Shown here piece after piece: positions 7,860-62,426 of a DNA stretch of 64,000 nt. Under the pieces are notes generated by a model, which saw only the letters and a list, made by a program, of their open reading frames with translations, was not told where the DNA came from and did no database searches. Location of the stretch: contig CAWFCG010000001.1 in the NCBI GenBank assembly GCA_963814315.1, positions 3,687 through 67,686 of the forward strand, read 5' to 3'. The DNA comes from an uncultured Chloroflexia bacterium. Lineage in GTDB: Bacteria; Chloroflexota; Limnocylindria; Limnocylindrales; CSP1-4. Made by a program: the position numbers and the translations under genes. How positions within the stretch are numbered: position 1 is the stretch's first letter; every line of letters begins with the position of its first letter.

Positions 7860-9546
7860 TGTCCACCATCAGCAGCCAACGCCGGAACGTAGGCAGCACC
7901 CAACCGCCGCCCTCGGCGGACAGCGGCGCGGCCGCCCCCGCGTCGGTCCAGGGCGAAGCGGCGACCGGTGCCGTAAGGCCACTCCAGAAGAGACGCAGTC
8001 CCACCTGGTCGACGGACGGGGATTTCGGCGTATCCCAATAGGCGTCAGCCTGGCCGCGCAGATCGACCAGGTGGAGGACGCGCCGCCCATCGTTGGTGCG
8101 AGTGGCGCCCAGCCAGATGGCGCCTGCCTCTGGCCCCGATGAGCAGCGGACGTCGTGGCCGTCAGCATCGACGATGCACACAGCGGCCGCCTCGGCGCGC
8201 TCCAGATCTGGCGCCGACACCAGGTGCAGGTAGCGTGCGCTGAAGCGCCACAGCGCGCGCATCTCCATGGTCTCAGCATCCAGCAGCGGGACCGCGGCGG
8301 GGTAGTAGCCCTCGACCAGTAGCCGATCTCCGTCCGCGAGGGTGTGGTGATAGGCACCGCTGGCCATGATCACCGCGCCCTGCAACAGCGACGCTTCGAA
8401 CGCGGCCGCACGCTCATCACTGCCGCTGTCGTCGGCGACGCTCGCGCGCAGGGTGGCCGCGTAGGCCGCGATGACGACCTGCCGCCCGGCGGCCAGCGAT
8501 CGCGCCTGTTCGATCCAGCGAACGACATCGGCGAACTCGCGGTCCGGCGGCCACAACTCGAGATAGAGCGCCGCGGTCGCAGCCGGAGCCACCGTGTCGA
8601 GCGGGAAGCCATCGACGCAGTTGAAGAGCACCCGCGTGCCGGGCGCGATCGCTGCGACCCGTTCGGCCGCCTCATCGATGAGCGCCGGATAGAGCGCCGC
8701 GAAGTCGAGGGCCTCTCCGTCCGCACCGACGGCCGAGTGCGGCGGGCCATAGGTGTCCATGTGGATCCCGTCGAAGGCGAAGCCCTCGATGGCGGCTGCG
8801 TACTCGTCGAGCAATCGGGTGCGCCAGGCAGAGCCCGGCCGCAGATCGTTGATGTAGAACACTGCGCCAAGGCTGAGCGGCTCGCCGGCGGTATCGAACA
8901 CCCGCTCGTCGGGATGTCCCGCGACGTAGTCGGCTTCCGCGCCGTACACCGCCCCGTAGGCCAGCGACGCGATGCCACATTCGTGCCCCGAGATGACCGA
9001 GGCTCGCACCGCAGCGTGCGAGACGGTCCGTCCGAGCGCGTCGACGAAGGTGTCACCGCCGTCGGGTGGCTGATATCGGTAGTGGCGCCACATCCAGTCG
9101 TAGTGCTGCACCACATTGACGTGCCAGGCGGCGAGGTCGCGGGTCACGCGGACGGCACCAGGGGCATCTTCGTAGTCGGTCATGGCCGCGTGCCGAGGCG
9201 ATTGCCACCAACCCTCGATGGCCTCCACGGCCGAAGATGCCTCGATGATGGACGATCCATCGGTCACCCTGAGCCGCAGCCCATAGCCATGACGAGCCAT
9301 GGCGGGCACCCGCATGAGCCACCGATGAGTAGCGGTCCCCACCCCGAGGTCGGTCGATTCGCGGATGGTGGTGATCTCCTCAGCCACGTCCAACAGGCTC
9401 ACCTCGAGCCGGACGTGCACAGCCCGGTCGGCGACAAGCCCAGCTACGATCGCCAGCTCGCCTCCCGGGGTCACCCAATGGCGCGACGGCCCGAAGGCCA
9501 CGATGATGACCGAGTCGGCGGAGGTGGCGGGCTTGGCGTCTCTCAT
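7846..9546 (-). CDS. Putative glycoside hydrolase, TIM-barrel (GH66-like motif FDGIHMDTYG); family uncertain
   Basis: 567 aa. The internal motif FDGIHMDTYGPP resembles the nucleophile region of GH66 dextranases. Start ATG at 9546 overlaps the stop of the upstream GH15 gene (ATGA). Last gene of the carbohydrate-utilisation operon. Confidence 0.4.
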   Translation of the reverse strand: MRDAKPATSADSVIIVAFGPSRHWVTPGGELAIVAGLVADRAVHVRLEVSLLDVAEEITTIRESTDLGVGTATHRWLMRVPAMARHGYGLRLRVTDGSSIIEASSAVEAIEGWWQSPRHAAMTDYEDAPGAVRVTRDLAAWHVNVVQHYDWMWRHYRYQPPDGGDTFVDALGRTVSHAAVRASVISGHECGIASLAYGAVYGAEADYVAGHPDERVFDTAGEPLSLGAVFYINDLRPGSAWRTRLLDEYAAAIEGFAFDGIHMDTYGPPHSAVGADGEALDFAALYPALIDEAAERVAAIAPGTRVLFNCVDGFPLDTVAPAATAALYLELWPPDREFADVVRWIEQARSLAAGRQVVIAAYAATLRASVADDSGSDERAAAFEASLLQGAVIMASGAYHHTLADGDRLLVEGYYPAAVPLLDAETMEMRALWRFSARYLHLVSAPDLERAEAAAVCIVDADGHDVRCSSGPEAGAIWLGATRTNDGRRVLHLVDLRGQADAYWDTPKSPSVDQVGLRLFWSGLTAPVAASPWTDAGAAAPLSAEGGGWVLPTFRRWLLMVDTTRE

Positions 9547-15066: not shown

Positions 15067-15202
15067 CAGTCGTGCGCTCCCTCCGCCTTCATTCGCTCGC
15101 CGAACGAACTAACCATAGCAGACTCGGCAAGCGGGCACCATGGCGTTCTTCCGTTGGCGTCTTCCGTTGACGTCGGCGCCGGCCGGGGTAGACTCACGCG
15201 GC

Positions 15203-16150
15203 ATGTCTCTCGTCGCCCTCGACGGCCTCACCAAGCGGTATCCCGGAGTCACCGCTCTCGACGGTCTCACGCTGACCATCGAGCCCGGCATCATCGGCCT
15301 CGTGGGCGCCAACGGTGCCGGCAAGTCCACGCTCATCAAGATCCTGCTGGGGCTGCTCGATGCCAGTGGCGGCAGAGCCAGCGTGCTCGATCTCGACATC
15401 AAGACCCAGGGCCTGGCCATCCGTCAGCTGGTCGGCTACATGCCCGAGCATGACTGCCTGCCGGGCGACATCAGCGCCAGCGACTTCGTCAACCACATGG
15501 CACGCATGAGCGGCCTGCCGCGGGCATCGGCTCGTGAGCGCACCGCGGAGGTGCTGCGGCATGTGGGCCTGTTCGAAGAGCGCTACCGACCCATGGGCGG
15601 CTACTCCACAGGCATGAAGCAACGCGTGAAGCTGGCCCAGGCGCTGGTGCATGACCCTCGCCTGCTGCTGCTGGACGAGCCCACCAACGGCCTCGATCCG
15701 GCGGGCCGAGAGGAGATGCTCGACCTCATCGAACGGACCGGGACGGTCTTCGGCATCGCCATCATCATGGCCAGCCACCTGTTGGGCGAAATCGAACGTG
15801 TCTCCGACTACCTGGTGGCCATCGATGGCGGCAAGCTGCTGCAGGCAGCGGCACTCGGCACCTTCACGCAGCACACCGGCACCCTCGTAGTGGAGGTGGA
15901 CGAACGGCCCGCCGACCTGGCCGCGCGCCTCCATGCTGCGGGTTACGTGGTTCGCGTGGACGGTTCCTTGGTCCTGGTGGTGATCCGTGGCGATGACACC
16001 TACGACCACGTCCGAGACAGCGTGGCCGACCTGGGCCTGGCACTCATCCGCGTGGAGCCGCGACGGGCCAGCCTGGAGGACCTCTTCCGCGACGAGTCGC
16101 CGATAGCGGAGTCGCCCGTCGCGCCGTCGCCCGCAGGGACGGAGTCATGA
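15203..16150 (+). CDS. ABC transporter ATP-binding protein
   Basis: Walker A GANGAGKST, signature YSTGMKQR, Walker B LLLDEPTNGLD. ATG at 15203 chosen (MSLVALDGLTKRY). Confidence 0.8.
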   Translation: MSLVALDGLTKRYPGVTALDGLTLTIEPGIIGLVGANGAGKSTLIKILLGLLDASGGRASVLDLDIKTQGLAIRQLVGYMPEHDCLPGDISASDFVNHMARMSGLPRASARERTAEVLRHVGLFEERYRPMGGYSTGMKQRVKLAQALVHDPRLLLLDEPTNGLDPAGREEMLDLIERTGTVFGIAIIMASHLLGEIERVSDYLVAIDGGKLLQAAALGTFTQHTGTLVVEVDERPADLAARLHAAGYVVRVDGSLVLVVIRGDDTYDHVRDSVADLGLALIRVEPRRASLEDLFRDESPIAESPVAPSPAGTES

Positions 16151-46928: not shown

Positions 46929-47439
46929 ATGCACAAGCTTCGCAGGACCATCGTCGTCGCCTCGCTGACGGCAATGGCGATCAGCGCGCTGGCGGCGCCA
47001 TCGTCGGCGCTCGTCGGCAAGGGCACCATCGGCGTCGTCAACGGGATTCCCGGGCAGCGGGTCGACATCTGTATCAACGGCAAGGAGATCCGCGGCAACG
47101 TCGACTACGGCGGTCGCACCTCCAAGACGATCAACTCGGGCATCAAGAGCATCAAGGTCTACAAGGCCGACCCGCGCAAGTGCAAGGGCGTGAAGGTGGC
47201 GCAGACGGTCATCGACCTGGGTGCCTTGGCGGTTCCGCTATCGGTTCTGGACAGCGAGCCCGGAAACGCCGGTCGGGCACGCGGCGAACCCGCTCTGGCA
47301 GGAGGGGAACGAAGTGTTTGCCATCAAGAAGGTCTCCCTCAAGGAGAGCCGACGCTACGAGTGGTACCTGCTGGGCACCAAGGCCAAGAACGCCAAGCTC
47401 GTCGTCTGGGAACGCCCAGTCACAGTACCCGAGCTGTAA
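46929..47439 (+). pseudogene. Decayed paralog of the downstream secreted protein: intact signal peptide and first ~100 codons, then two internal deletions and a frame change
   Basis: Nt 46847..47232 are near-identical to 47617..48002. The 3' end (47221..47439, a different frame) encodes ...ETPVGHAANPLWQEGN...AIKKVSLKESRRYEWYLLGTKAKNAKLVVWER, matching the C-terminus of the 47699..48418 product. Confidence 0.6.
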
Positions 47440-47698
47440 CGATCCCCAATTCCGTTGCTCGGAGGACAGGGTCGAAGGGACCGGTCCTTCGTGACGGCTC
47501 CGGATGGGTGTTCCAGGGTAAAGGGGGCGATCGGCCACTCGCCACTGACGACCGGACCCAATCTGTCGCCGGCGTCGACGGACTCGTCGGCTATATGCCT
47601 GGTAGCCGATGGTGGGGGTGGTCGATCACACAGTGCGCCGGTTATGGTTTCTCCCAGCGTCGTGACCCCCGCGACGCGTCAGGCAGGGAGAAGCAGGT

Positions 47699-48418
47699 AT
47701 GCACAAGCTTCGCAGGACCATCGTCGTCGCCTCGCTGACGGCAATGGCGATCAGCGCGCTGGCGGCGCCATCGTCGGCGCTCGTCGGCAAGGGCACCATC
47801 GGCGTCGTCAACGGGATTCCCGGGCAGCGGGTCGACATCTGTATCAACGGCAAGGAGATCCGCGGCAACGTCGACTACGGCGGTCGCACCTCCAAGACGA
47901 TCAACTCGGGCATCAAGAGCATCAAGGTCTACAAGGCCGACCCGCGCAAGTGCAAGGGCGTGAAGGTGGCGCAGACGGTCATCGACCTGGGTGCCTTGGC
48001 GGACTGGACGCTGGTCGTCAACAAGCAGGCACCCAAGGTCGTCAAGTTCGACAACGTCGGGATGGGTACGATCCCACCGGATGGGCTGCCCCTTCCCATC
48101 GCCTACTTCATGTGGCGCCATGCAGCGGACCTGGGCGCGGTGAACTTCCACTACCGCGCCTGGATGGCCACCCCGGAGACGCCGGTCGGACCTGCCGCGA
48201 ACCCGCTCTGGCAGGAAGGGAACCAGATCGGATCGGCCTCAGGGCCAGGTAGCATCTGGCAACTTCGCATCACCCGACCGGACCAAGCCAAGACGCTGGC
48301 CATCAAGAAGGTCACCTTCAAGGAAAGCCGACGCTACGAGTGGTACCTGCTGGGCACCACGGCCAAGAACGCGAAGCTCGTGGTCTGGGAGCGCCGCATC
48401 TCGCAGCCGGTTCCGTAG
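47699..48418 (+). CDS. Secreted hypothetical protein (239 aa), intact copy of a tandem paralog pair
   Basis: Signal peptide MHKLRRTIVVASLTAMAISALAAPSSA. No known catalytic motif. Confidence 0.6.
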   Translation: MHKLRRTIVVASLTAMAISALAAPSSALVGKGTIGVVNGIPGQRVDICINGKEIRGNVDYGGRTSKTINSGIKSIKVYKADPRKCKGVKVAQTVIDLGALADWTLVVNKQAPKVVKFDNVGMGTIPPDGLPLPIAYFMWRHAADLGAVNFHYRAWMATPETPVGPAANPLWQEGNQIGSASGPGSIWQLRITRPDQAKTLAIKKVTFKESRRYEWYLLGTTAKNAKLVVWERRISQPVP

Positions 48419-52231: not shown

Positions 52232-52839
52232 AGCTGCGTCGAGTGACCCCGGAGGCAGCGGGTTGGGGCCAGACCAAGGTCGGGCCGTGGACTCGCCACG
52301 AGCGGCGTCTCGGCTATCGAAACCCCTGGATCACCGTCTGGCATGACGATGTCACCCGGCCCGATGGCGAGCCGGGGATCTACGGCGTCGTCCACTTCGA
52401 GAACAGCGCTGTCGGCGTCGTTGCTATCGACGAGCAGGACCACGTCGTCCTGGTGGGCCAGCATCGCTACGCCTTCGATGAGCTGTCATGGGAGATCCCC
52501 GAGGGTGGCTCGCCGACGGGTGAGGATTCGCTCGCTGGTGCCAAACGGGAACTGCTCGAGGAGACCGGCATCACGGCGCGGTCGTGGCGTGAGATCGGCC
52601 GCTGGCAACTCTCCAACTCAGTCACTGACGAGGCCGCGGTGACGTATCTCGCCACCGACCTGCAGCAAGGCGAGGCGCAGCCGGAGGGTTCAGAGGAGCT
52701 GGCAGTCAGGTGGTTACCGTTCGACGAAGCCATGGAGATGGTGCGCCTGGGCGAGATGACCGACGCCCTGTCGGTGTTGACACTGCAGACATTGGCGCTG
52801 GAACGCGCGCGCGGCGGCGAACGCGCGGGCGGCAGCTGA
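52228..52839 (+). CDS. NUDIX hydrolase (ADP-ribose pyrophosphatase-like)
   Basis: Nudix box GGSPTGEDSLAGAKRELLEETGI; overlaps the SDR stop (TTGA). Confidence 0.7.
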   Translation: MKLRRVTPEAAGWGQTKVGPWTRHERRLGYRNPWITVWHDDVTRPDGEPGIYGVVHFENSAVGVVAIDEQDHVVLVGQHRYAFDELSWEIPEGGSPTGEDSLAGAKRELLEETGITARSWREIGRWQLSNSVTDEAAVTYLATDLQQGEAQPEGSEELAVRWLPFDEAMEMVRLGEMTDALSVLTLQTLALERARGGERAGGS

Positions 52840-53284
52840 GGACGCTGGCAGGCATCGCGCCTCGCAGGCACCACGAAAATCTGACCTGGCTGGCGCGCCG
52901 ACTGAGGACGCTAGGCAGGCACTTGACCTCGCCGGGCCGGCAAGTGTCCGGAATCCCGGATAGAGCGAGCAGATCCGACGCGTGGGACCGGACCGGCGGC
53001 GCTCACGACCGAGCCTTGCCGCCCAGCGGGGTCGGAATCGACCATTTCGTGCCGACGCGGGCCGACTACTCACCAATACTCCTGGCTCGATCGCCCAATT
53101 CCTGGCCGGATCGATCATCGTCTGGCTCGACCCTCGATGCACGGACGATCCTGTTCGCCCCATGTGGGAATCCGGCACGTTGGGCGCTGCCTCACGGGAC
53201 GGCCTCATGGAGAAGCCGAGGGCCGGAAGCACACAAGGCCTGCGCCGGGACATCAGTCGACCCGACACAGGCCGGAACCTCGGT

Positions 53285-53313
53285 TTGACAGTGCTGTCGG
53301 CGGCCGCTACTGT
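53285..53313 (+). promoter_or_regulatory. Sigma-70-like promoter (TTGACA - 17 nt - TACTGT) driving the aromatic leader and superoperon
   Basis: Consensus -35 at 53285..53290 and a TAnnnT -10 at 53308..53313, read from the sequence. The predicted TSS is ~3-5 nt before the leader ATG. Confidence 0.4.
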
Positions 53314-53323
53314 CCGAAGCCAC

Positions 53324-53350
53324 ATGACACGTTACTGGTACTTTAGCTAG
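53324..53350 (+). CDS. Aromatic-amino-acid leader peptide MTRYWYFS (8 codons, Tyr-Trp-Tyr-Phe)
   Basis: ATG ACA CGT TAC TGG TAC TTT AGC TAG, located 145 nt upstream of the DAHP synthase start and followed by an intrinsic terminator. Confidence 0.5.
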   Translation: MTRYWYFS

Positions 53351-53404
53351 CGGACACGAGGCGGCCGGGGGAGATCCCGGCGGCAGAGGCACTCGTGCCC
53401 GCGA

Positions 53405-53437
53405 CGCAGGACCCTCAGGGGCCTGCGTTTTTTCTTT
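53405..53437 (+). terminator. Rho-independent terminator / attenuator hairpin (CGCAGGACCC-tca-GGGGCCTGCG followed by TTTTTTCTTT)
   Basis: 9-bp GC-rich stem with one bulge, then a 6-U tract. Lies 58 nt upstream of the DAHPS ATG. Confidence 0.6.
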
Positions 53438-53494
53438 GCCTCATACGACACGAACGACCGAAGCAAGACACGACTGGATAAGGGTGGTAGCGAG

Positions 53495-54868
53495 ATGATC
53501 ATCGTGATGCGCACCGGAGCGGCGCAGGAAGAGATCGACGAAGTCAAGCAGGCCGTCGCGGCGGAGGGCCTGGAGACCTACGTGATGGTGGGCGAGGAGC
53601 GCATCGTCATGGGCGTCGTCGGTGTCGGCGTGGAGCGTGTGCAGCACGTCGAGCTGCTGCCCGGCGTGGAGCAGGTCATCCGCGTCAGCAAGCCCTACAA
53701 GCTCGCCTCGGTCGAGCACCACCCCGGCCGATCGAGGGTCCGGGTCGGCCCCGTCGAGATCGGGGCGGGCGCACCGGTGGTAGTCATCGCGGGGCCTTGT
53801 GCGGTCGAATCACGCGAACAGGTGTTGGCCACCGCGCGCTGGGTCAAGCGCGAGGGTGCCACCATCATGCGCGGCGGCGCCTTCAAGCCACGCTCCTCAC
53901 CGTACGCCTTCCAGGGACTCGGAGTCGAGGGTCTCAAGCTGTTGGCCGAAGCGCGCGAGGCCACGGGGCTACCCGTGGTCAGCGAGATCACCGACCCGGC
54001 CGATGTGCCGGTCTTCGATGAGTACGTCGACATGCTGCAGGTCGGCGCCCGCAACATGGCCAACTTCGTGCTCCTGAAGGCCGTGGGCCGGTCGAAGAAG
54101 CCGGTGTTGCTGAAGCGGGGCCTCTCGGCCACCATCGATGAGCTGCTGATGGCGGCTGAGTACATCTTAAGCTCCGGCAACCCCAACGTCATCCTTTGCG
54201 AGCGGGGCATCCGCACCTTCGAGACCGCCACCCGCAACACGCTTGACCTCTCCGCCGTGCCGGTCGTCCAGCAGCGCACGCATCTGCCCATCATCGTCGA
54301 TCCGTCACACGGCACCGGACAACGCGCCCTGGTGCGTCCGCTGGCCGTGGCCGGGGCCGCCGTGGGTGCCGATGGCATCATCATCGAGGTCCATCCCGAT
54401 CCGCCGAGCGCGCGTTCCGACTCCGAGCAGTCGCTCTCCTTCCCCGAGTTCGGTGACCTCATGGACGACCTGCGTCGCCACGAGTACCTGCGTCAGCCGA
54501 CCGCGCCGCATGTGCAGATCCACATCGAGCCACCGGCCGAGCGCAGACGGTTGCGGTCTCGTATCGATGATGTCGATTCACGCATCGCATCCTTGCTCGA
54601 AGAGCGGGCCGAGCTGTCGGTGGCCGTGCAGCAGACGCGAGATCCTGGCGACCACGGGCACGACGTGGGCCGTGAACGCGAGCTTATCGAGCGCGCCTCG
54701 CACGGCGGCGAGGGCGTGCTCACACCGGACGAGGTCGAGATGGTGTTCGGCGCCATCCTGCGCGTCTCACGCTCCGCCCAGCGTCGCAACGCCGCGGTCG
54801 ATGCTGCGGTCGCGGGTGGCGCCAGTCCGGACGCCGCGGCCGTCACGGGCAATGGTCTCGGCCAGTGA
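53495..54868 (+). CDS. Tri-domain type I-beta DAHP synthase: N-terminal ferredoxin-like (FL/ACT-like) regulatory domain + catalytic barrel + C-terminal AroQ-class chorismate mutase
   Basis: Residues 1-340 align closely with Thermotoga maritima DAHPS including its FL domain ([19 protein letters not shown]..., [35 protein letters not shown]). The C-terminal [28 protein letters not shown]...RERELIERA matches the chorismate mutase type II signature. Confidence 0.8.
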
Positions 54869-56226
54869 GCGACGAGCCTTCGACGCACGAGCGAAACGAA
54901 CGGGAAGAGGGGGACGGATTGGTCCGCGCGGCGCCGGCGCTGCTGGGTTCGTTGCGCCTGCCGGCCGACAAGTCGGTCGGGCACCGCGCTCTGCTCTTCA
55001 GTGCCATGGGCAGCGGCGCGGCTGAGATCCGCCTCGACCGGCCCGGTGAGGACATCCTCTCGATGGCCGGTGTGCTGCAGAGGCTGGGCGCGGTGCGCTC
55101 CGTCGAGACCGACGCTGCCGGCGTGGTGCGCGTCATCATCGATGGTGGCGGCTCGCCCAAGGCCGCCCGCCTGCCCGGGCGCGGTGGTGAGACGCTCGAC
55201 TGTGGCAATGCCGGCACCGCTATGCGGCTGCTCACGGGGGCGCTCGCGGGACGCCCCGCCGTGGCTACGCTGACGGGCGACTCGTCACTCTCGAGCCGAC
55301 CCATGGAGCGGGTGGCCGAACCACTGCGGATGGTTGGTGCAGAAGTGACCACGACGGGAGGCCATGCGCCCGTGGTCGTGGTCGGCCGGCGCCCGCTGCA
55401 GGCAGTCGATCACACGTTGTCGGTCGCCAGCGCCCAGGTCATCGGCTGCCTGACGCTGGCCGCCCTGGCGGCCGAGGGCACCACTACCATCACCGTTCCC
55501 GGTCCCACCCGCGACCACACCGAGCGCATGCTGGCCTGGTTGGGGGCACCGGTTCGACGCGAAGGGCAGCTCACCACCATCGAAGGCCCGGTCGGCTTCG
55601 ACAACCGTGACATCGCAGTCCCCGGTGACATCTCGTCGGCGGCCGCCTGGCTCGTGGCGGGCGCCCTCCATCCCGATGCCCACATCATCATCGAAGACGT
55701 GGGCCTGAACCCATCGCGCACCGGCATCATCGACGTGCTGCGCGACATGGGGGCGGAGATCAAGGTCGCTTCGGAAGGGCCGACCCACGACTGCCCCGAG
55801 CCGGTCGGCACCATCACCGTCGACGGCGGCCACCCGCTGCATGCCATCGATCTCGCCGGTGACCGCGTCGCCGACATCATCGATGAGCTACCGCTCATCG
55901 CGGTGGCCATGGCGGCGGCGGACGGGGTGAGCACCCTGCGCCATGCCGCCGAGCTGCACTTCAAGGAATCGGACCGCATCAAGCTGGTGGTCGAGAACCT
56001 GCGGGCCGTCGGCGCACACGCCGAGGAGCGTGAGGATGGTTGGGTAGTGTCCCGTGGCGTGCCCCGCGATGCGGCCATCCGTACCCTGGCCGACCATCGC
56101 ATCGCCATATCGTTCGCCATCGCCGCTCTGGCCGGCGTGGCCGGTACCGTTGACATCGACGATCCCGCCTGCGCGGCCGTCTCCTATCCCACCTTCTGGA
56201 CGGACATGGAGCAGCTCATCCCATGA
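54865..56226 (+). CDS. aroA: 3-phosphoshikimate 1-carboxyvinyltransferase (EPSP synthase)
   Basis: [26 protein letters not shown]-terminal motif. GTG start overlaps the DAHPS stop (GTGA). Confidence 0.85.
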
Positions 56227-57518
56227 CCCTGCGACGCCTTCGACTCCTCACTGCCGGCGAGTCCCACGGACCAGGCTTGTCCGGAATCCTCGAGGGCCTC
56301 CCGGCCGACCTTCGCGTCTCCACAGCCAAGGTTGACAAGGAGCTGGCTCGACGGCAGCACGGCTACGGCAGCGGGCGACGTATGACCATCGAACGTGACC
56401 GCGTGGCGTGGACGGCGGGCCTTCGCTTCGGTCGCACGCTGGGTTCTCCCCTCGCCTTCAGTATTGCCAACCTCGACTGGACCAACTGGGAAGAGCGCAT
56501 GTCAGTCGAGCCGACCGCCGCATCGCGCCGGCCCAAGCCCATCACCCTGGCGCGCCCGGGACACGCCGACCTCGCAGGCGCGATCAAATACGACACCGGC
56601 GACATCCGCAACGTGCTCGAGCGCGCCTCCGCTCGCTCCACGGCTCCTCGTGTCACCGCCGGCGCGGTCTGCCGCCAACTGCTGGAGGTGTGCGGCGTGC
56701 GCATCTGGTCCTTCGTCGACCAGCTGGGGCCAGTGCAGGCGTACGGAGGCGTCGATGAGCCGGCAACCCTGGTGCCGGCAGATTGGGTCGGACAGGACCG
56801 GCGCCATCCCACGCCACTGCGATGCCCTGATCCCGAGGCTGAGGCGGCCATGATGACCGAGGTAGACGCAGCCATCGCGGCCGGGGATTCGGTCGGCGGC
56901 TCATTCGTCGTAGTCGCGCAGGGCATGCCCGTGGGCATCGGCTCGAGCGCCGAGTGGGACACGCGTATCGACACCGCCATCGCCGCGGCACTGATGGGCA
57001 TCCAGGCCGTGAAGGGCGTGGAGATCGGCCTGGGATTCGGGACGGTGGCACGACGTGGCTCGCAGATCCACGACGAGGTGAAGCCAGGAGCGCCCGACTG
57101 GGAGCGCAAGACCAATCGTGCCGGCGGCACGGAGGGCGGCATGAGCAACGGCGCTGACATCGTGGCTCGGGTGGCCGTCAAACCGGTCTCTACGCTTCGC
57201 AAGCCGCTCGACTCGGTCGATCTGGAGACGGGCGAGGTGCGGCGCGCGCACATCGAGCGCAGCGACGTGGCCATCACCCCGCGCGCGGCGGTGGTGGGCG
57301 AAGCCATGCTGGCGCTGGCCCTGGCCGACGCCCTGCTGGCCGACCTCGGTGGCGACACCATCGCTGACGTGCGGGCGGCCGTACGGCGTCGCCGCTCGCG
57401 CTCCAGAGGTCCACGCGGCGGGACCGCGGCATCGGGCCTGATCGATGCGCTGCCGGACAACGCCGCCGAAGAGGCCACGGCTGTCGAGGGCAGCGTGGTC
57501 GAAGGCGCCGACGCCTGA
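56223..57518 (+). CDS. aroC: Chorismate synthase
   Basis: LRLLTAGESHGPGL signature; ATGA overlap. Confidence 0.85.
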   Translation: MTLRRLRLLTAGESHGPGLSGILEGLPADLRVSTAKVDKELARRQHGYGSGRRMTIERDRVAWTAGLRFGRTLGSPLAFSIANLDWTNWEERMSVEPTAASRRPKPITLARPGHADLAGAIKYDTGDIRNVLERASARSTAPRVTAGAVCRQLLEVCGVRIWSFVDQLGPVQAYGGVDEPATLVPADWVGQDRRHPTPLRCPDPEAEAAMMTEVDAAIAAGDSVGGSFVVVAQGMPVGIGSSAEWDTRIDTAIAAALMGIQAVKGVEIGLGFGTVARRGSQIHDEVKPGAPDWERKTNRAGGTEGGMSNGADIVARVAVKPVSTLRKPLDSVDLETGEVRRAHIERSDVAITPRAAVVGEAMLALALADALLADLGGDTIADVRAAVRRRRSRSRGPRGGTAASGLIDALPDNAAEEATAVEGSVVEGADA

Positions 57519-58303
57519 TGGCAGTGGCGCTGTCGTTCCAGCTGCTCGGTCACGGCATCGCCTACTCGGCGTCACCAGCCATGATGTCCGCCGCCTTCGC
57601 GGCCCTGCATCTGCCGCATCGATACATGCTGGCCGATGTCCCGGCAGCCGAGGTTGCCACTGCCGTGTCGCGGCTGAGGGAACGAGACTCGGGCGGAGCC
57701 AACGTCACCGTGCCCCACAAGACCACCGTGGCGGCGCTGATGGATGATGTCTCCGACGTGGCGCGTGCCGCCGGTGCGGTCAACACCGTGGTCCGCGAGG
57801 GTGATCGGCTCATCGGGCACAACACGGACATGCCGGCCACGGTCGAAGCCATCGAGCGGCTTTGTCCTGATGGTGTGGGCCACGCACTCATCCTCGGCGC
57901 CGGCGGCGCAAGCCGCGCCGTGCAGCTGGCGCTGGCGGAGGTCGCCGTTGGGCGCGTGACGGTCTTGCGCCGCTCTGACGGCTCGCTGGAACACCTGGCC
58001 GACGCCATCATCAGCGCCGATCTACTGGTCAACGCCACGCCGGTGGGGACCGGCTCCGACGAGAGCCTGGTGCCGATGGAGCTGCTGCGCCCGGGCCTGG
58101 CCGTCCTCGACCTGGTGTATCGGCCCAGCCCGACGTGCCTGGTTCGTGATGCCCGAGCCGTCGGCGCCAGCGCCGAATTGGGTGCCGCCATCCTGCTGGG
58201 CCAAGCTTGGCGTTCGCTGGAGCTGTGGCTTGGGACGCCAGCGCCGATCGACGTGATGCGCGCGGCATTGGATGCGGAGCTCGGCGGTCACGCTGGTGTC
58301 TGA
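57518..58303 (+). CDS. aroE: Shikimate dehydrogenase
   Basis: GIAYSASPAM and NVTVPHK motifs plus the NAD(P) motif GAGGASRAV; TGATG overlap with aroC. Confidence 0.8.
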   Translation: MAVALSFQLLGHGIAYSASPAMMSAAFAALHLPHRYMLADVPAAEVATAVSRLRERDSGGANVTVPHKTTVAALMDDVSDVARAAGAVNTVVREGDRLIGHNTDMPATVEAIERLCPDGVGHALILGAGGASRAVQLALAEVAVGRVTVLRRSDGSLEHLADAIISADLLVNATPVGTGSDESLVPMELLRPGLAVLDLVYRPSPTCLVRDARAVGASAELGAAILLGQAWRSLELWLGTPAPIDVMRAALDAELGGHAGV

Positions 58304-59903
58304 CGCCATCGTCCTGGTGGGCCTGTCAGGCAGCGGCAAGTCCACCGTGGCGACCCTCGTCGCAGCACGCTTGGGGCGACCCCTGGTCGACCTCGACCGC
58401 GAGATCGAGTCGCGCGAGGGCGCCCATCCTGCCGAGCTCATCAACACTCGCGGTGAGGCAGCCTTCCGGGCCATCGAGTCGGCCGCGGTCGAGCGCGCCT
58501 GCGGCATCGGCGGCGCGGTCATCGCCACCGGTGGCGGCGCGGTCGTCGATCCCCTGAACCGTTGGGCGCTGTGGCACGCGGGTGTCGTGGTCTGGCTTGA
58601 TCTGCCCGACGAGGTGCTCAGCGGCCGGCTGGAAGGTCACGCCGAGGAGCGACCCATGCTGGCCGGCAACACGCTGGCGCAGTTGGTGGCCATGCGCGCG
58701 GCCCGGACCCGCTTCTACCGAGCCGCGGATGTTCGCGTCGATGCCACCGGCCCTGCCGATGCCGTGGCGCGTCGCGTCATCGAGGTCGCCGCCGAGGGGC
58801 GCCCAGCGTCTCGACGGCTCTTCGACGGCCTGGTCCGTCGCGACCACCGCATGGGGCCGGACACGGCGCGCGTGGTACTGGGCAACCAGTTCGACCGGGC
58901 CACGCTTGATGACATCCTGGCCCCCAGCAGCAGCGGCACCCCGGTCATCTTCGCGGACCGTCGTGCAGCTGCCGCACTGCCCGAGCTGATGGCGTCACTA
59001 CCCACTGAGCGGCAGATCCGCATCGCGACCGGAGAACGGCAGAAGCGCCTGCGCACGGTGGAGAAGCTGCTGGAAGCCGCCAGTGCCATAGGCGCCGAAC
59101 GCGGCGATGCCTGGGTCGGTGTCGGCGGCGGCACCGCGACCGACATGATCGGCACGGCCGCTGCGCTCTACCTGCGCGGTGTGAGCTTCGTGGCCGTGGC
59201 CACGACCTGGCTGGGCATGACCGACGCCGCCATCGGTGGCAAGGTCGCGGTCGACCTCTCAGCCGCCAAGAATGCTGCCGGGGCCTTCTGGCCGCCGGTC
59301 GCCATCATCGGAGACGTGGCCACGCAACGGTCACTGACTCGAGCGCGCCGCCTCGATGGCATGGCCGAATTGCTCAAGAGCGGCCTCATCGGCGACCCCT
59401 CGCTGTGGGCCCTGGTCGAACGTCGCGGCAAGGCCGCGCTGCATGACGACGAGGCGGCACGCTACGCCATCATCGACCGATCGGTGCAGCTCAAGCTCGA
59501 TATCGTCGATCGCGACCCCTTCGAGCGGGGAGTTCGTCGTTCGCTGAACCTGGGACACACGTTGGGACATGCGCTGGAGATCGAGAGTGGCTACCGATTG
59601 CCCCATGGCATGGCCGTCGTGCTGGGCCTGCGTGCGGTCGCCCATATCGCGCAGGGTCGCGGTGCGCAGGCCGGTCTGGCCCAGCACATCGATGAGGTCG
59701 CAGGCAACCTCGGCTACCAGCTCCACCGCGACTTCGATCCCGTCGTCGTCAAGCAAGCGCTCACACGTGACAAGAAGCGCATCAAGGGCCAGCAGCGTTG
59801 GATCCTGCCGGTGGCTGTCGGCGAGGTGATCGACGTGGCCGATGTGACCGAAGCGGAGATCGACGCCGGCATCCGCGCCATCAGCTCGGCGGCTGCGCGA
59901 TGA
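58272..59903 (+). CDS. aroK/aroB: Shikimate kinase fused in-frame to 3-dehydroquinate synthase (AroK-AroB bifunctional protein; aroB would otherwise begin at the internal Met near 58860)
   Basis: N-terminal GLSGSGKST Walker A plus RGEAAFR (the AroK lid). From about residue 200 it is AroB: GERQK, AIGGGTATDMIGTAAALYLRGVSFVAVATT, LNLGHTLGHALE. There is no stop codon between the two domains in this frame. Confidence 0.7.
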   Translation: MRSSAVTLVSDAIVLVGLSGSGKSTVATLVAARLGRPLVDLDREIESREGAHPAELINTRGEAAFRAIESAAVERACGIGGAVIATGGGAVVDPLNRWALWHAGVVVWLDLPDEVLSGRLEGHAEERPMLAGNTLAQLVAMRAARTRFYRAADVRVDATGPADAVARRVIEVAAEGRPASRRLFDGLVRRDHRMGPDTARVVLGNQFDRATLDDILAPSSSGTPVIFADRRAAAALPELMASLPTERQIRIATGERQKRLRTVEKLLEAASAIGAERGDAWVGVGGGTATDMIGTAAALYLRGVSFVAVATTWLGMTDAAIGGKVAVDLSAAKNAAGAFWPPVAIIGDVATQRSLTRARRLDGMAELLKSGLIGDPSLWALVERRGKAALHDDEAARYAIIDRSVQLKLDIVDRDPFERGVRRSLNLGHTLGHALEIESGYRLPHGMAVVLGLRAVAHIAQGRGAQAGLAQHIDEVAGNLGYQLHRDFDPVVVKQALTRDKKRIKGQQRWILPVAVGEVIDVADVTEAEIDAGIRAISSAAAR

Positions 59904-60343
59904 GGATCCTGCTGCTCAACGGGCCCAACCTGGGTCGCCTCGGCCAGCGCCAACCGGAAGTGTACGGCTCGACGACGCTGGCTGAGGTCGAGGAGGCCGC
60001 AGCCAGCCACGCCAAGAGCCTGGGTCACCAGGTCACGACGTTTCAGTCGAACCACGAAGGGGCGCTCATCGACCGCATCGAGCGACGGGATTACGACGCC
60101 ATCGTCATCAACCCGGGCGCTCTGACGCACTACGCCTGGTCGCTCCACGACGCTCTGCTGGGTGCCGAGTGCCCCGTCGTGGAGGTCCACCTCAGCGACA
60201 TCATGGCGCGGGAGGCATGGCGGCACGTGTCGGTCATCGAACCGGTCGTGAGCCACCGCGTCCTGGGACATGGCTGGCGCGGGTATCTCGAGGCCATCGA
60301 CTACCTGCATGAGCACGCCGCAGACCGCGGCCAGCCCTCCTGA
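59900..60343 (+). CDS. aroQ: Type II 3-dehydroquinate dehydratase
   Basis: ILLLNGPNLGRLGQRQPEVYGSTTL...HEGALID...NPGALTHY matches the type II DHQase signature. ATGA overlap. Confidence 0.85.
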   Translation: MRILLLNGPNLGRLGQRQPEVYGSTTLAEVEEAAASHAKSLGHQVTTFQSNHEGALIDRIERRDYDAIVINPGALTHYAWSLHDALLGAECPVVEVHLSDIMAREAWRHVSVIEPVVSHRVLGHGWRGYLEAIDYLHEHAADRGQPS

Positions 60344-60360
60344 TACCCAGAGGACCCAGC

Positions 60361-61805
60361 ATGACACCCCAACTCCCGCGCCCCGGCCTTGCCGGTGTTG
60401 CCGCTGTCGAGATCAGCGCCGACACCATCTCGCCGGTCACCGCCGCGCTGCGCCTGCACGACCAGCAGCGCCTCGCCTTCATCCTCGAATTGGTCGAGGG
60501 CGGCGCCCGCTACGGCCGCTACTCGATGGTCGGCGTGCGCGGCCGCTACCTCAGCTACGACGATGGCGTGGCCACCATCCACAGCTACGACTACGCCGAA
60601 GTCGATCGCTTCGACGAGGCGGACCCGCTGGAGGCGCTGCGCCGGTTCCTGCCCGAGGTTCCCGTGCAGGGACCGCTGCCGGTGTCGCTGGCATCCGGCG
60701 TCGGCTATCTCGCCTATGAGGCTGCCGCGCACTGGGAGAGACTGCCGGTTCCCGAGGCTGACCCCGTCGGCCTGCCCGAAGCGCTGTTCCACTTGCCGGA
60801 CGTGCTGATCGTCTTCGACCACTTGGGCCAGACGGCCACGCTGGCCACCATCGACGGAGCCGGCGCCGGGGAGCGTTTGGCCGATGCCGCCGCCATGCTG
60901 GCGCGACCTTCGGCCATCGAGGCGGCCGTGCCGATCCCGTCCGGATCCACGCGTCCCCAGCCACCCGCCGCCGATGCGCGCTACGAAGCCGGCGTCGCCA
61001 GCCTGGTCCGTGACATCCACGCCGGCGAGATGCTCCAGACGGTGCTGGCCCGCCGCTTCAGCCTGCCCTGCACGGTGGGGCCGCTGGAGGTCTACCGCTC
61101 ATTGCGTCGCATCAATCCCTCGCCGCACTTGTTCGCCATCGACTGCGGGCCTCACCGCTCGGTGCTGGGTGCTTCGCCGGAGTTGCTGGTGCGGGTGCGC
61201 GACGGCGTCGTTGCCACGCGGCCCATCGCCGGCACGCGACCCCGGTCGGCCGACCCCATCATCGATGCTGAGCTGGAGGCCGACCTGCTGGCCGACGAGA
61301 AGGAGCTGGCGGAGCACGCCATGCTCGTTGACCTCGCCCGCAACGACGTCGGACGCGTGGCCACGCCGGGCAGCGTGCGGGTGCCCTCGCTGCACGCCAT
61401 CGAGCGCTACTCACATGTGATGCACATCGTCAGCGAGGTCGAAGGCGAGCTGGCGGCCGGTCGGGACGCCTTCGATGCGGTCCGCTCGGTGTTCCCGGCG
61501 GGCACGTTGTCCGGCGCGCCCAAGGTGCGTGCCATGCAGGCCATCGCCGAGCTGGAACAGGAGCAGCGCGGTCCCTACGGCGGGGCCATCGGGTTCTTCG
61601 CGCCCGACGACGTGGAGGTCGCCATCACCATCCGCTCGATGGTGCTGAAGGACGGCACCGCCTACGTCCACGCCGGGGCTGGCATCGTGGCTGACTCGGT
61701 GCCGGCCCGCGAATCGGCGGAGGTGGCAGCCAAGGCGGGTGCCATCCTTGCCGCCCTCGCTGATGCCGAAGCCATCTATGGGACCGACCGACCGGAGACC
61801 GACCG

Positions 61806-61809
<4 letters not shown>
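60361..61809 (+). CDS. trpE: Anthranilate synthase component I (TrpE; PabB-type aminodeoxychorismate synthase not excluded)
   Basis: Chorismate-binding family motifs: the LLES-like element ILELVEGGARYGRYSMVG, plus GTLSGAPKVRAMQ and GGAIGFF. Confidence 0.75.

Positions 61810-62426
<617 letters not shown>

Follow-up and report, generated by a model that had tools for sequence, protein, structure and literature searches.

The DNA analyzed here, a stretch of 64,000 nucleotides that we call the window, belongs to a member of the Chloroflexota, class Candidatus Limnocylindria (Candidatus Limnocylindrales), which corrects the actinobacterial context assumed in an earlier note on this DNA. Pfam scans identify on its plus strand an operon that opens with a gene for a DAHP synthase carrying ferredoxin-like and chorismate mutase domains and ends with trpG (Table 1). 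Neighboring genes in this operon overlap or abut, and no further ORF follows on the plus strand 3′ of trpG. The operon had been taken to encode the whole aromatic pathway; it comprises the common pathway together with chorismate mutase, trpE and trpG only. Ahead of it lie, in order, a predicted promoter, a micro-ORF rich in aromatic codons, a long stem (stem A, with basal helix P1 and apical helix P2) and an intrinsic terminator (T). The genes upstream of this element encode an SDR and a NUDIX protein.

Table 1 Features of the leader region and of the operon that follows it, in window coordinates
Feature	Position	Strand	Basis or remark
Predicted promoter: –35 TTGACA (53285–53290), 17-nt spacer, –10 TACTGT (53308–53313)	53285–53313	+	Direct reading of the sequence
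Leader micro-ORF, ATG ACA CGT TAC TGG TAC TTT AGC TAG (MTRYWYFS*), stop 53348–53350	53324–53350	+	Direct reading
Putative sensor codons Tyr-Trp-Tyr-Phe (TAC TGG TAC TTT)	53333–53344	+	Aromatic cluster permuted among lineages
Spacer codon AGC and stop TAG; P1 pairing starts with the G of TAG (53350)	53345–53350	+	Conserved geometry
Stem A, 53 nt	53350–53402	+	Minimum free energy (MFE) fold and covariation
P1, basal helix, one A·C mismatch (53354/53398)	53350–53360 with 53392–53402	+	MFE
P2, apical helix	53361–53370 with 53375–53384	+	MFE
Apical loop of stem A	53371–53374	+	MFE
3′ bulge of stem A, 7 nt, AGAGGCA	53385–53391	+	MFE
Linker between stem A and T, 1 nt	53403	+	1–4 nt in relatives
Intrinsic terminator T: hairpin 53404–53428, U6 53428–53433	53404–53433	+	Fold and own scan
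T stem pairs; bulged A 53411; loop 53415–53418	53404–53410/53422–53428 and 53412–53414/53419–53421	+	Fold
Variable spacer with SD-like AAGGGTGG (53480–53487) before the DAHP synthase ATG (53495)	53434–53494	+	25–138 nt in relatives
Putatively regulated operon, whole	53495–62426	+	Pfam scans
DAHP synthase with ferredoxin-like and chorismate mutase domains	53495–54868	+	Pfam scan
aroA	54865–56226	+	Pfam scan
aroC	56223–57518	+	Pfam scan
aroE	57518–58303	+	Pfam scan
aroK–aroB fusion	58272–59903	+	Pfam scan
aroQ	59900–60343	+	Pfam scan
trpE	60361–61809	+	Pfam scan
trpG	61806–62426	+	Pfam scan

The promoter had been described as near-consensus, a description that suits the –35 hexamer only, because the –10 hexamer matches TATAAT at three of six positions, though it fits TAnnnT. 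The pattern TTGAC(A/G), a spacer of 16–19 nt (mostly 17–18) and TAnnnT recurs in nearly all relatives for which upstream DNA is available, and the distance from the –10 hexamer to the ATG of the micro-ORF is conserved at 8–11 nt (10 nt in the window). Within the whole window, the layout TTGACA-N16–19-TAnnnT-N5–12-ATG occurs only twice. The short distance to the ATG and the lack of a conserved Shine–Dalgarno sequence predict a 5′ UTR of 0–5 nt; transcription would start a few nucleotides 5′ of the ATG at 53324, and the micro-ORF is probably leaderless or nearly so. A simple promoter and terminator scanner that we ran called neither feature. Its rules demand at least four of six –10 matches and an unbulged terminator stem with a loop of 3–8 nt, so its blank result is explained by these rules and does not argue against either feature.

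All parts of the module are found together 5′ of the DAHP synthase–chorismate mutase gene in 85 related loci, across which identity of the synthase falls from 96% to ~58%. Forty-seven genome loci with the module were located through protein homology alone. The synthase gene follows the module in 37 metagenome loci wherever the contig extends far enough, and the module is also present in L201, L203 and L204. Among the loci searched, we found the element nowhere but ahead of the DAHP synthase operon; DAHP synthase loci of Chloroflexaceae, Dehalococcoidia and Bacteroidota contain neither the element nor an aromatic micro-ORF.

The 8-codon ORF with Tyr-Trp-Tyr-Phe at residues 4–7, described in the earlier note, can be read directly in the window, and the suggestion that similar micro-ORFs might precede DAHP synthase genes in relatives is borne out overwhelmingly (85 loci, 45 peptides). 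The 80 loci with a readable micro-ORF encode these 45 distinct peptides of 8–10 residues, every one of which contains three to five clustered Phe, Trp or Tyr residues, arranged as YWYF, YWSF, FWFY, FFWYY, WFY, FEFY and other variants. All three aromatic amino acids are present in 37 peptides, and the remaining 8 lack Trp or Phe. Residues 2–4 vary without constraint, and synonymous codons are used freely in the 59 distinct ORF sequences (68 TAC and 22 TAT; 51 TTT and 30 TTC). Only L044, with a 1-nt change in an AAA run, has a disrupted reading frame; one micro-ORF starts with GTG (L099), and one is truncated by the contig end (L142). What does not vary is the geometry: the last aromatic codon is followed by one spacer codon and then by UAG, whose G opens stem A. 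The penultimate residue is thus the last aromatic one in 45 of 45 peptides, the stop codon is UAG at every locus, and the spacer codon, which encodes S, A, T, G, D, P, I or R, nearly always has C as its third base. The permuted order of the aromatic residues, the synonymous changes and the freedom of residues 2–4 indicate selection on codon identity rather than on RNA sequence or peptide structure, and the micro-ORF behaves like genuine coding sequence under selection for its aromatic codons.

We also compared the Trp codon of the leader with the trp genes of the operon. The window has a leader Trp codon and, in the operon, trpE and trpG; in L204 and L205 the leader (MTRSWFYG) likewise has Trp, the trp genes form an operon of their own that is divergent and has a T-box in front, and pheA lies 3′ of aroQ. 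The two features show no simple correlation, given L204 and L205, and the contigs with a Trp-free leader (FEFYA) are too short to decide.

Across 80 sequences, stem A spans 51–53 nt with a folding energy of –30 to –39 kcal/mol, and T has a hairpin energy of –16 to –21 kcal/mol and a U run of 4–6. They are separated in 80 of 80 sequences by a linker of 1–4 nt without sequence conservation; the linker measures 1–3 nt in the 48 loci that protein homology yielded, for which no search pattern set a length limit. For stem A, 98.7% and 98.4% of alignment cells are paired and 10–11 pairs change on both sides, values that none of 500 shuffles equaled. P2 covaries at five of eight pairs and T shows compensatory changes at three to four pairs, and P1 is near-invariant. 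The G–C pair at alignment columns 37/91, which brings the G of the stop codon into P1, is invariant, and conservation of P1, of the outer T stem and of the stop-codon overlap goes far beyond what pairing alone requires. The bulge occurs as AGAGGCA, GCAGGCA, AAGACAC or AGGAUGA. A T-box-like reading of this bulge was rejected, as it has no UGGN and lies on the 3′ side of the stem. Folding of 53320–53440 gives –54.6 kcal/mol (z = –3.2; none of 200 shuffles as good). Two upstream sequences had been proposed to form alternative hairpins; they are both parts of the single covarying stem of 51–53 nt, with GCCGGG...CCCGGC forming P2 and GGCACtcGTGCC corresponding to the bulge and the 3′ strand of P1.

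A strong GC hairpin with a U6 tract between the micro-ORF and the DAHP synthase gene is read directly, as reported earlier, with distances that need correction: it begins 53 nt after the stop codon (not 55 nt), and the synthase start codon lies 61 nt (not 58 nt) past the U tract. When we scanned the 64 kb on both strands, this hairpin (ACGCAGG-A-CCC/UCAG/GGG-CCUGCGU) was the only one of –12 kcal/mol or lower with T5 or more behind it. Between T and the synthase gene, relatives have a spacer of 25 to 138 nt that is not conserved in sequence. At 25 nt, as in L021 and L023, it leaves no room for a separate promoter, and the operon can therefore only be transcribed through T.

The recurrence of the module, the clustered yet varied aromatic codons and the compensatory changes in its stems together lend strong support to a leader-peptide attenuator. 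We consider it very likely that the element is an attenuator sensing aromatic codons, and we put at roughly 0.75 the probability that it is a ribosome-mediated transcription attenuator for the aro–trp operon of this Limnocylindria-class Chloroflexota bacterium. From the sequence we infer where transcription starts, that the ORF is translated and that T terminates transcription. A ribosome would translate the 8-codon ORF, for which codons 4–7 would require Tyr-, Trp- and Phe-tRNA; the polymerase would next meet a strong intrinsic terminator ~80 nt past the stop codon, and the operon would be transcribed by read-through only.

Folding reveals no set of mutually exclusive 1:2, 2:3 and 3:4 structures such as textbook attenuation would predict, and T forms in every modeled ribosome state. 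In 11 diverse sequences, the MFE fold contains T in each of three situations (ribosome absent, ribosome halted on the final aromatic codon, ribosome on the stop codon), and suboptimal folds within 6 kcal/mol of the optimum contain no productive upstream pairing of the T 5′ arm. With T forbidden, the consensus (alifold) fold has an energy of –27.4 versus –40.6 kcal/mol. Enumeration, in 75 distinct sequences, of all helices of at least 5 bp that the arms of T could form with upstream RNA, together with alifold, yields only the weak helices GCGGG:CCUGC and CUCGU:ACG-AG; the sole conserved competitor of T is the 5-bp GCGGG:CCUGC, possible in 72 of the 75. A hairpin between the bulge and the P1 3′ strand (GGCAGAG:CUC-G-UGCC), seen when region 1 is masked, was dropped because variants with the bulge AAGACAC or AGGAUGA do not conserve it. 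Between the ORF region and downstream RNA there is no conserved pairing, the apparent matches being wobble helices between U runs and G runs. Moreover, the regulatory codons (53333–53344) lie outside region 1, as P1 begins at 53350, and the textbook logic is not transferable because the aromatic codons are upstream of the stem rather than within region 1. The proposed trp/phe/his-type attenuation therefore holds for the selected aromatic micro-ORF, the promoter and the terminator before the aro operon, and fails for the antiterminator and for the position of the codons.

These results bear directly on a classical trp-type mechanism, in which a stalled ribosome would free the P1 3′ strand (CUCGUG, 53392–53397) to pair as a 2:3 helix with the T 5′ arm (ACGCAG, 53404–53409). 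The P1 5′ strand (ACGAGG) resembles the T 5′ arm (ACGCAGG) and the P1 3′ strand resembles the T 3′ arm, likenesses that would be expected if one strand had to pair with two partners. Forbidding T leads alifold to CU-CGU:ACG-C-AG plus GCGGG:CCUGC, the latter being available in nearly all sequences, as noted above, and the near-invariance of P1 and outer T would suit a dual constraint. The 2:3 helix is nevertheless just 5 bp with a bulge, and the alternative fold is 13 kcal/mol worse and absent from constrained minimum-energy folds. The CUCAUG variant of the L020 group breaks the 2:3 pairing while P1 is compensated. The aromatic codons lie 8–17 nt upstream of P1, such that a stalled ribosome would leave region 1 unmasked, and a ribosome at the stop codon would mask region 1 and so cause read-through when amino acids are plentiful, which is the wrong direction. 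We regard this mechanism as unlikely.

We also weighed whether the terminated transcript of ~110 nt is itself an sRNA or micro-peptide gene, with the operon living on constitutive leakage and the aromatic codons serving as no starvation sensor. The predicted formation of T in all states and the high sequence conservation of P1 and T would fit, and there is precedent in Sinorhizobium, where rnTrpL and peTrpL, an attenuator-derived RNA and a leader peptide, are reported to act in trans (PMC6614838 and PMC7298713). Such a function is very improbable here, given that the aromatic residues are permuted and partly substituted, which ill suits a structured 8-residue peptide, that the element occurs only before the DAHP synthase operon and that the codon composition exactly matches the pathway end products.

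For the leader-peptide attenuator that we favor, the switch would depend not on a classical 2:3 antiterminator but on P1 of stem A, which either stays closed or is opened by the ribosome. Takyar, Hickerson and Noller are said to have placed the ribosomal helicase site, in 2005, at about +11, a rule derived from Escherichia coli ribosomes. For a ribosome that runs short of charged tRNA at the last aromatic codon, P1 would lie at +12 counted from the P-site, by this rule just outside the helicase site, and starvation for Phe, Trp or Tyr would leave stem A closed. A ribosome that reaches the UAG would unzip the five G–C pairs GCGGG/CCCGC. For a biosynthetic operon such as this one, read-through must be favored by closed P1 and termination by opened P1, so that the direction required of the switch would be the reverse of the trp paradigm. 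As we found no stable antiterminator, it is this geometry and the expected direction of regulation that link ribosome position with termination in our model.

Our preferred physical explanation, which we hold tentatively, is that a rigid closed stem A, only 1–4 nt away, would block formation of the lowest T base pairs in the polymerase exit channel. This block would act with or without a stalled ribosome held against the stem; opening of the clamp would create a flexible tether of 6–9 nt, on which the terminator hairpin could be completed. We know of no documented case of an abutting helix that sterically blocks an intrinsic terminator. A ribosome positioned a few base pairs from a terminator is known to repress that terminator (PMC4824070). 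It is possible, if doubtful, that the element represents an antiterminator-free form of attenuation in which the ribosome serves as a helicase ‘key’, with the UAG set in the base of the stem and a 5-bp G+C clamp abutting T. Plentiful charged Phe-, Trp- and Tyr-tRNAs would then bring the ribosome to the UAG, where it would open the clamp and permit termination, and a starved ribosome would park one helicase-length short, so that the closed stem and the ribosome would sterically block T.

The same correct logic, in which a closed stem leads to read-through, would follow if stem A were a site for a trans-acting antitermination factor, either a protein or, as for phage HK022 put RNA, the polymerase itself, and the ribosome controlled only the folding of this site. 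Sequence conservation of P1, of the purine-rich 7-nt bulge and of the outer T stem goes well beyond the needs of pairing while P2 covaries freely, as might be expected of a binding site. The bulge sequence, however, differs among the four variants given above, a put-like element would not need strict 1–4-nt adjacency to T, no conserved candidate gene for an RNA-binding protein adjoins the element (the upstream genes being those for the SDR and NUDIX proteins) and Rfam returns no match save one that is below threshold and not common to the homologs. We judge a trans-acting factor to be quite improbable, and we retain the ribosome-operated stem as the preferred reading.

To our knowledge, nearly all characterized leader-peptide attenuators follow the 1:2/2:3/3:4 scheme and belong to Proteobacteria, Actinomycetota or Bacillota, and sensor ORFs of 8–10 codons are among the shortest of this kind. 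A full-text literature search gave no paper on a leader-peptide attenuator in Chloroflexota among the matches listed, and as far as these go the element would be the first for this phylum. The sensor would be both small and broad, with most variants reading all three aromatic amino acids and controlling the entry enzyme and the common pathway. The module might offer a compact and possibly portable part for amino-acid-responsive control, and our covariance model (R1) shows where the aromatic operon begins in metagenome-assembled Limnocylindria genomes.

In the enterobacterial trpL, pheL and hisL leaders, as described by the Yanofsky model, region 1 contains the regulatory codons and 3:4 faces competition from a stable 2:3 antiterminator. 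The element described here shares with them the order of promoter, short ORF with end-product codons, intrinsic terminator and biosynthetic genes, but its codons precede the stem, stem A and T are independent of each other in thermodynamic terms and the switch would have to work the opposite way round; this strictly conserved geometry without an antiterminator may indicate a different switching principle. Neither Trp_leader, Phe_leader and His_leader nor other leaders or the T-box of Rfam match at E ≤ 10 (52500–54000) or at E ≤ 1 (53250–53520). One Rfam family of Rhizobiales sRNAs, RF02502 (Atu_C8), aligns over its full length at 53319–53443 with 33.6 bits against a gathering score of 50. It has a similar layout, with an unstructured 5′ part, a long stem that encloses a hairpin, and a terminator directly adjoining it, and its consensus start, AUG AUU AUU CUU GUG GUG, looks like a possible Ile/Leu/Val leader ORF. 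Five homologs (L019, L020, L037, L107 and L204) do not match Atu_C8 at E ≤ 0.01, and we rejected membership in this family on the basis of the sub-threshold score, unshared by these homologs, leaving a resemblance of layout only.

The closest known case is the aroR–aroF attenuator of Corynebacterium glutamicum, in which the aroR leader (Phe-Tyr-Phe) precedes the DAHP synthase gene aroF and stalling raises transcription of the operon (Neshat et al. 2014, as described in PMC11802643 and PMC4046766). In both systems a DAHP synthase gene is immediately preceded by a short ORF in which aromatic codons cluster, one in the Actinomycetota and the other in the Chloroflexota. The aroR leader has no Trp codon and is reported to respond to Phe only (PMC11802643, PMC4046766), whereas 37 of our 45 peptides contain Phe, Trp and Tyr. 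Compared with aroR as described in print, our element has an ORF of 8–10 codons, a stop codon that overlaps the first pair of a conserved stem and no evident antiterminator. Common descent of the two leaders seems unlikely, because they belong to different phyla and their ORFs differ in length. A further parallel is offered by the leaderless polycysteine short ORFs of mycobacteria, which form the first cistron of a biosynthetic operon and in which stalling at end-product codons raises expression (bioRxiv 10.1101/834739). The Limnocylindria micro-ORF is predicted to resemble them in being leaderless or near-leaderless, and it too lies ahead of biosynthetic genes; in the Limnocylindria element, in contrast, the conserved output is a canonical intrinsic terminator, and it is the spacer to the next gene that varies.

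Every part that the earlier note had listed ahead of the DAHP synthase gene (promoter, micro-ORF, hairpin with U6 and synthase start) was present on reading 52900-53700. A simple consensus scanner called neither a promoter nor a terminator at the leader, a limit of its rules because the −10 matches TATAAT at only three of six positions and the terminator stem carries a bulged A. The 121-nt leader folds at −54.6 kcal/mol (z = −3.2), and its terminator is the sole hairpin of −12 kcal/mol or below with at least five T after it on either strand of the 64 kb. Canonical intrinsic terminators appear to be rare in this genome, also after trpG, beyond which no + strand ORF continues.

Leader elements and the operon that follows them
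Feature	Position	Description
−35	53285-53290	TTGACA; 17-nt spacer to −10
−10	53308-53313	TACTGT
Micro-ORF	53324-53350	MTRYWYFS*; ATG ACA CGT TAC TGG TAC TTT AGC TAG; 10 nt past −10
Stem A	53350-53402	Single long stem; 1 nt from terminator in predicted fold
Terminator	53404-53433	GC-rich hairpin, then six U
DAHP synthase ORF	start 53495	457 aa; N-terminal ferredoxin-like and C-terminal chorismate mutase domains (Pfam)
Downstream genes		aroA, aroC, aroE, aroK-aroB fusion, aroQ, trpE, trpG, in this order, overlapping or abutting (Pfam)

The attenuator element is present in a single copy in the window, and its promoter-to-ATG arrangement recurs only once, at 15164-15205 (TTGACG-17-TAGACT, 8 nt from the ATG of an ABC-transporter ATPase gene starting at 15203). 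The transcript of that gene is a second candidate near-leaderless mRNA, which suggests that such mRNAs are in use in this organism. The nearest synthase homologues and their genome records are metagenome-assembled Chloroflexota, and the genomes with finer classification are Candidatus Limnocylindrales or Limnocylindria; the Actinobacteria assumed in the earlier note are therefore the wrong phylum, despite which its idea of a leaderless ORF may hold. Elsewhere in the window, consecutive ORFs at 46929-47738 and 47699-48418 share an identical first ~100 residues (MHKLRRTIVVASLTAMAISALAAPSSALVGKG... in the ORF translations) and therefore point to a tandem duplication of ~770 bp.

Protein-level scanning, limited to a single genome per species, identified 47 loci that encode a synthase-mutase orthologue (identity 66-96%) and have upstream DNA that could be used, and the module lies upstream of the orthologue in all 47. 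In relatives, an 8-10-codon ORF is followed by TAG, stem A, a linker (1-3 nt in these loci) and the terminator, with a variable spacer of 25-138 nt to the synthase. Nearly all loci having upstream DNA carry TTGAC(A/G), a 16-19-nt spacer (mostly 17-18 nt) and TAnnnT, and the micro-ORF ATG falls 8-11 nt past the −10. Scanning metagenome contigs for a DNA pattern and filtering the matches by a covariance model of the element (R1), built from the first alignment, added 37 loci; a synthase gene is downstream in 23 of the 23 with a tblastn match, some at only 58-60% identity, and the remaining contigs end too near the element to include it. Examination of contigs gave three extra loci. The element is absent from Chloroflexaceae, Dehalococcoidia and the other more distant loci. 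One related locus, L075, holds two copies (402-530 and 2834-2960) separated by ~2.4 kb of unrelated ORFs. Its upstream copy keeps the promoter, an ORF (MKSLFWFYA), the 5' strand of the basal helix and the apical helix, beyond which it has diverged, and the synthase-adjacent copy (MFVTHYWFYA) has no TTGACA promoter; a rearrangement or insertion may explain this, as may an artefact of assembly.

The aromatic micro-ORF is kept upstream of DAHP synthase in relatives, as 45 distinct peptides across 80 loci with a readable frame, among them MTRYWYFS, MVRYWSFS, MHAYWFFS, MTQQFWFYA, MNTFFWYYT, MSQMWFYG, MQHPCWWYA and MRHEFEFYA. Residues 2-4 vary freely, and the aromatic block, permuted in order, invariably spans 3-5 residues, the last of which is the penultimate residue of the peptide (45/45). 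F, W and Y are all present in 37 of the 45 (W is missing from four, F from another four), and codons vary synonymously among 59 distinct ORF sequences (TAC 68/TAT 22, TTT 51/TTC 30). Such a pattern is what codon-level sensing predicts. It fits neither a functional 8-residue peptide nor a constraint at the RNA level only. At locus L044 (2802-2832), the frame is off by 1 nt within an AAA run (ATGCCAGTTCGCAAACTGG...), where AA would give MPVRNWYYA; the assembly probably carries a sequencing error in this homopolymer.

In the homology-derived alignment, 98.7% of cells are paired and ten pairs have changes in both partners; no shuffle of the columns (0/500) matched the observed paired cells, both-side-changed pairs or cells, or covariation score, and slid registers paired only 33-42%. 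The 86-sequence model alignment gave the same picture. Covariation involves five of eight pairs in P2, the apical helix of stem A, and 3-4 terminator pairs. Hardly any variation is seen in P1, the basal helix (consensus GCGGGUACGAG / CUCGUGCCCGC), or in the outer stem of the terminator (ACGCAGG/CCUGCGU). Stem A in relatives measures 51-53 nt (−30 to −39 kcal/mol) and is joined by a 1-4-nt linker to a terminator of −16 to −21 kcal/mol with U4-6. The upstream alternative hairpins proposed in the earlier note correspond to P2 and to the bulge plus P1 3' strand, both inside the single stem A.

Comparative evidence thus supports well the reading of an aromatic leader-peptide attenuator before the DAHP synthase operon. 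The textbook mechanism attached to it is not supported: suboptimal, consensus, ribosome-state and competitor-helix analyses found no mutually exclusive structures. No suboptimal fold within 6 kcal/mol of the optimum productively engages the terminator 5' arm, excluding the terminator costs the consensus fold 13 kcal/mol at best, and the minimum-energy folds of 11 diverse sequences include the terminator whether the ribosome is absent, stalled on the last aromatic codon or at the stop codon. A weak classical 2:3 (antiterminator) switch is a rival explanation; among competitor helices, only the 5-bp pairing of GCGGG with CCUGC can form in most sequences (72/75). A 2:3 candidate, CUCGU:ACG-C-AG (5 bp plus a bulge), is broken in the L020 group of loci, where P1 is compensated.

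Without exception, a single spacer codon separates the last aromatic codon from UAG, the G of which is the first base of P1. In E. coli, the ribosomal helicase site is at about +11 counted from the first P-site nucleotide. A ribosome awaiting Phe-, Tyr- or Trp-tRNA at any sensor codon would leave P1 closed, because P1 begins at +12 for the last sensor codon, whereas one with UAG in its A site would open exactly the five G-C pairs that clamp the P1 base (GCGGG/CCCGC). In the trp paradigm, region 1 is masked by ribosome stalling; the geometry here implies, in contrast, that it would be spared on stalling and masked once translation completes. With spacers as short as 25 nt (L021 and L023), polymerase has to pass the terminator to transcribe the operon, and, the genes being biosynthetic, closed P1 would have to favour read-through.

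Our preferred explanation, to which we give only about three chances in ten, is a steric block of the terminator by closed stem A. A rigid 20-bp stem that has a ribosome parked at its base and is linked by 1-4 nt to the bottom of the terminator hairpin would be unable to enter the polymerase exit channel behind the hairpin, so that the lowest terminator pairs would fail to form; clamp opening would release a 6-9-nt tether. Folded stem A would also place the ribosome close to the terminator in space, and an E. coli terminator is repressed by a ribosome a few base pairs away (PMC4824070). A factor binding stem A is the other rival to this steric block.

Different aromatic leader ORFs, 24-29 aa long (for example MNRMGNGNSYYFSYYYFDAPVCPALRMT and MERLELRNFSLWFSYYYFYGQVCPSLRRT), lie ~195-230 nt 5' of the DAHP synthase start in Syntrophales/Thermodesulfobacteriota (L057, L061, L064, L066, L072, L077 and L078), followed by two tandem GCCAUGG...CCAUGGC hairpins and, after most, a U run. 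These leaders, upstream of type I-beta DAHP synthase, seem to form a separate attenuator family of more classical design. Some Limnocylindria have a divergent trp operon (trpE, trpG, trpD, fused trpC-trpF-trpB, trpA) separate from the aro operon, which in these lineages ends in pheA, not trpE and trpG. A T-box leader precedes it in L204 (8789-9047, − strand; full-length RF00230, 59.9 bits against a gathering score of 93, E = 1e-10), with similar sequence in L201 at about 8750-9110. At the end of this predicted T-box-controlled operon in L201, between trpA and hisG, is a 98-aa gene matching Trp_repressor (PF01371; 1706-2002, − strand).

An Rfam search of the leader region matched no leader family and no T-box; a match to Atu_C8, full-length yet sub-threshold, was rejected as not common to homologues. 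The consensus of that family (RF02502, 'Rhizobiales sRNA Atu_C8') begins AUG AUU AUU CUU GUG GUG (M-I-I-L-V-V) and has a stem and terminator at its end. Judged by the consensus alone, the family resembles a leader-peptide attenuator for branched-chain amino acids more than a plain sRNA. A full-text literature search combining Chloroflexi with leader-peptide and attenuation terms gave no paper with a mention of Chloroflexi among the matches listed. The element deserves attention for how small it is, for the sensing of three amino acids and for a geometry that appears to be inverted and to do without an antiterminator. Its nearest functional relative is the C. glutamicum aroR leader (Phe-Tyr-Phe), which, according to PMC11802643 and PMC4046766, precedes aroF and responds to Phe limitation. 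The leaderless polycysteine ORFs of mycobacteria (10.1101/834739) are analogous sensors, though their effect is on translation.
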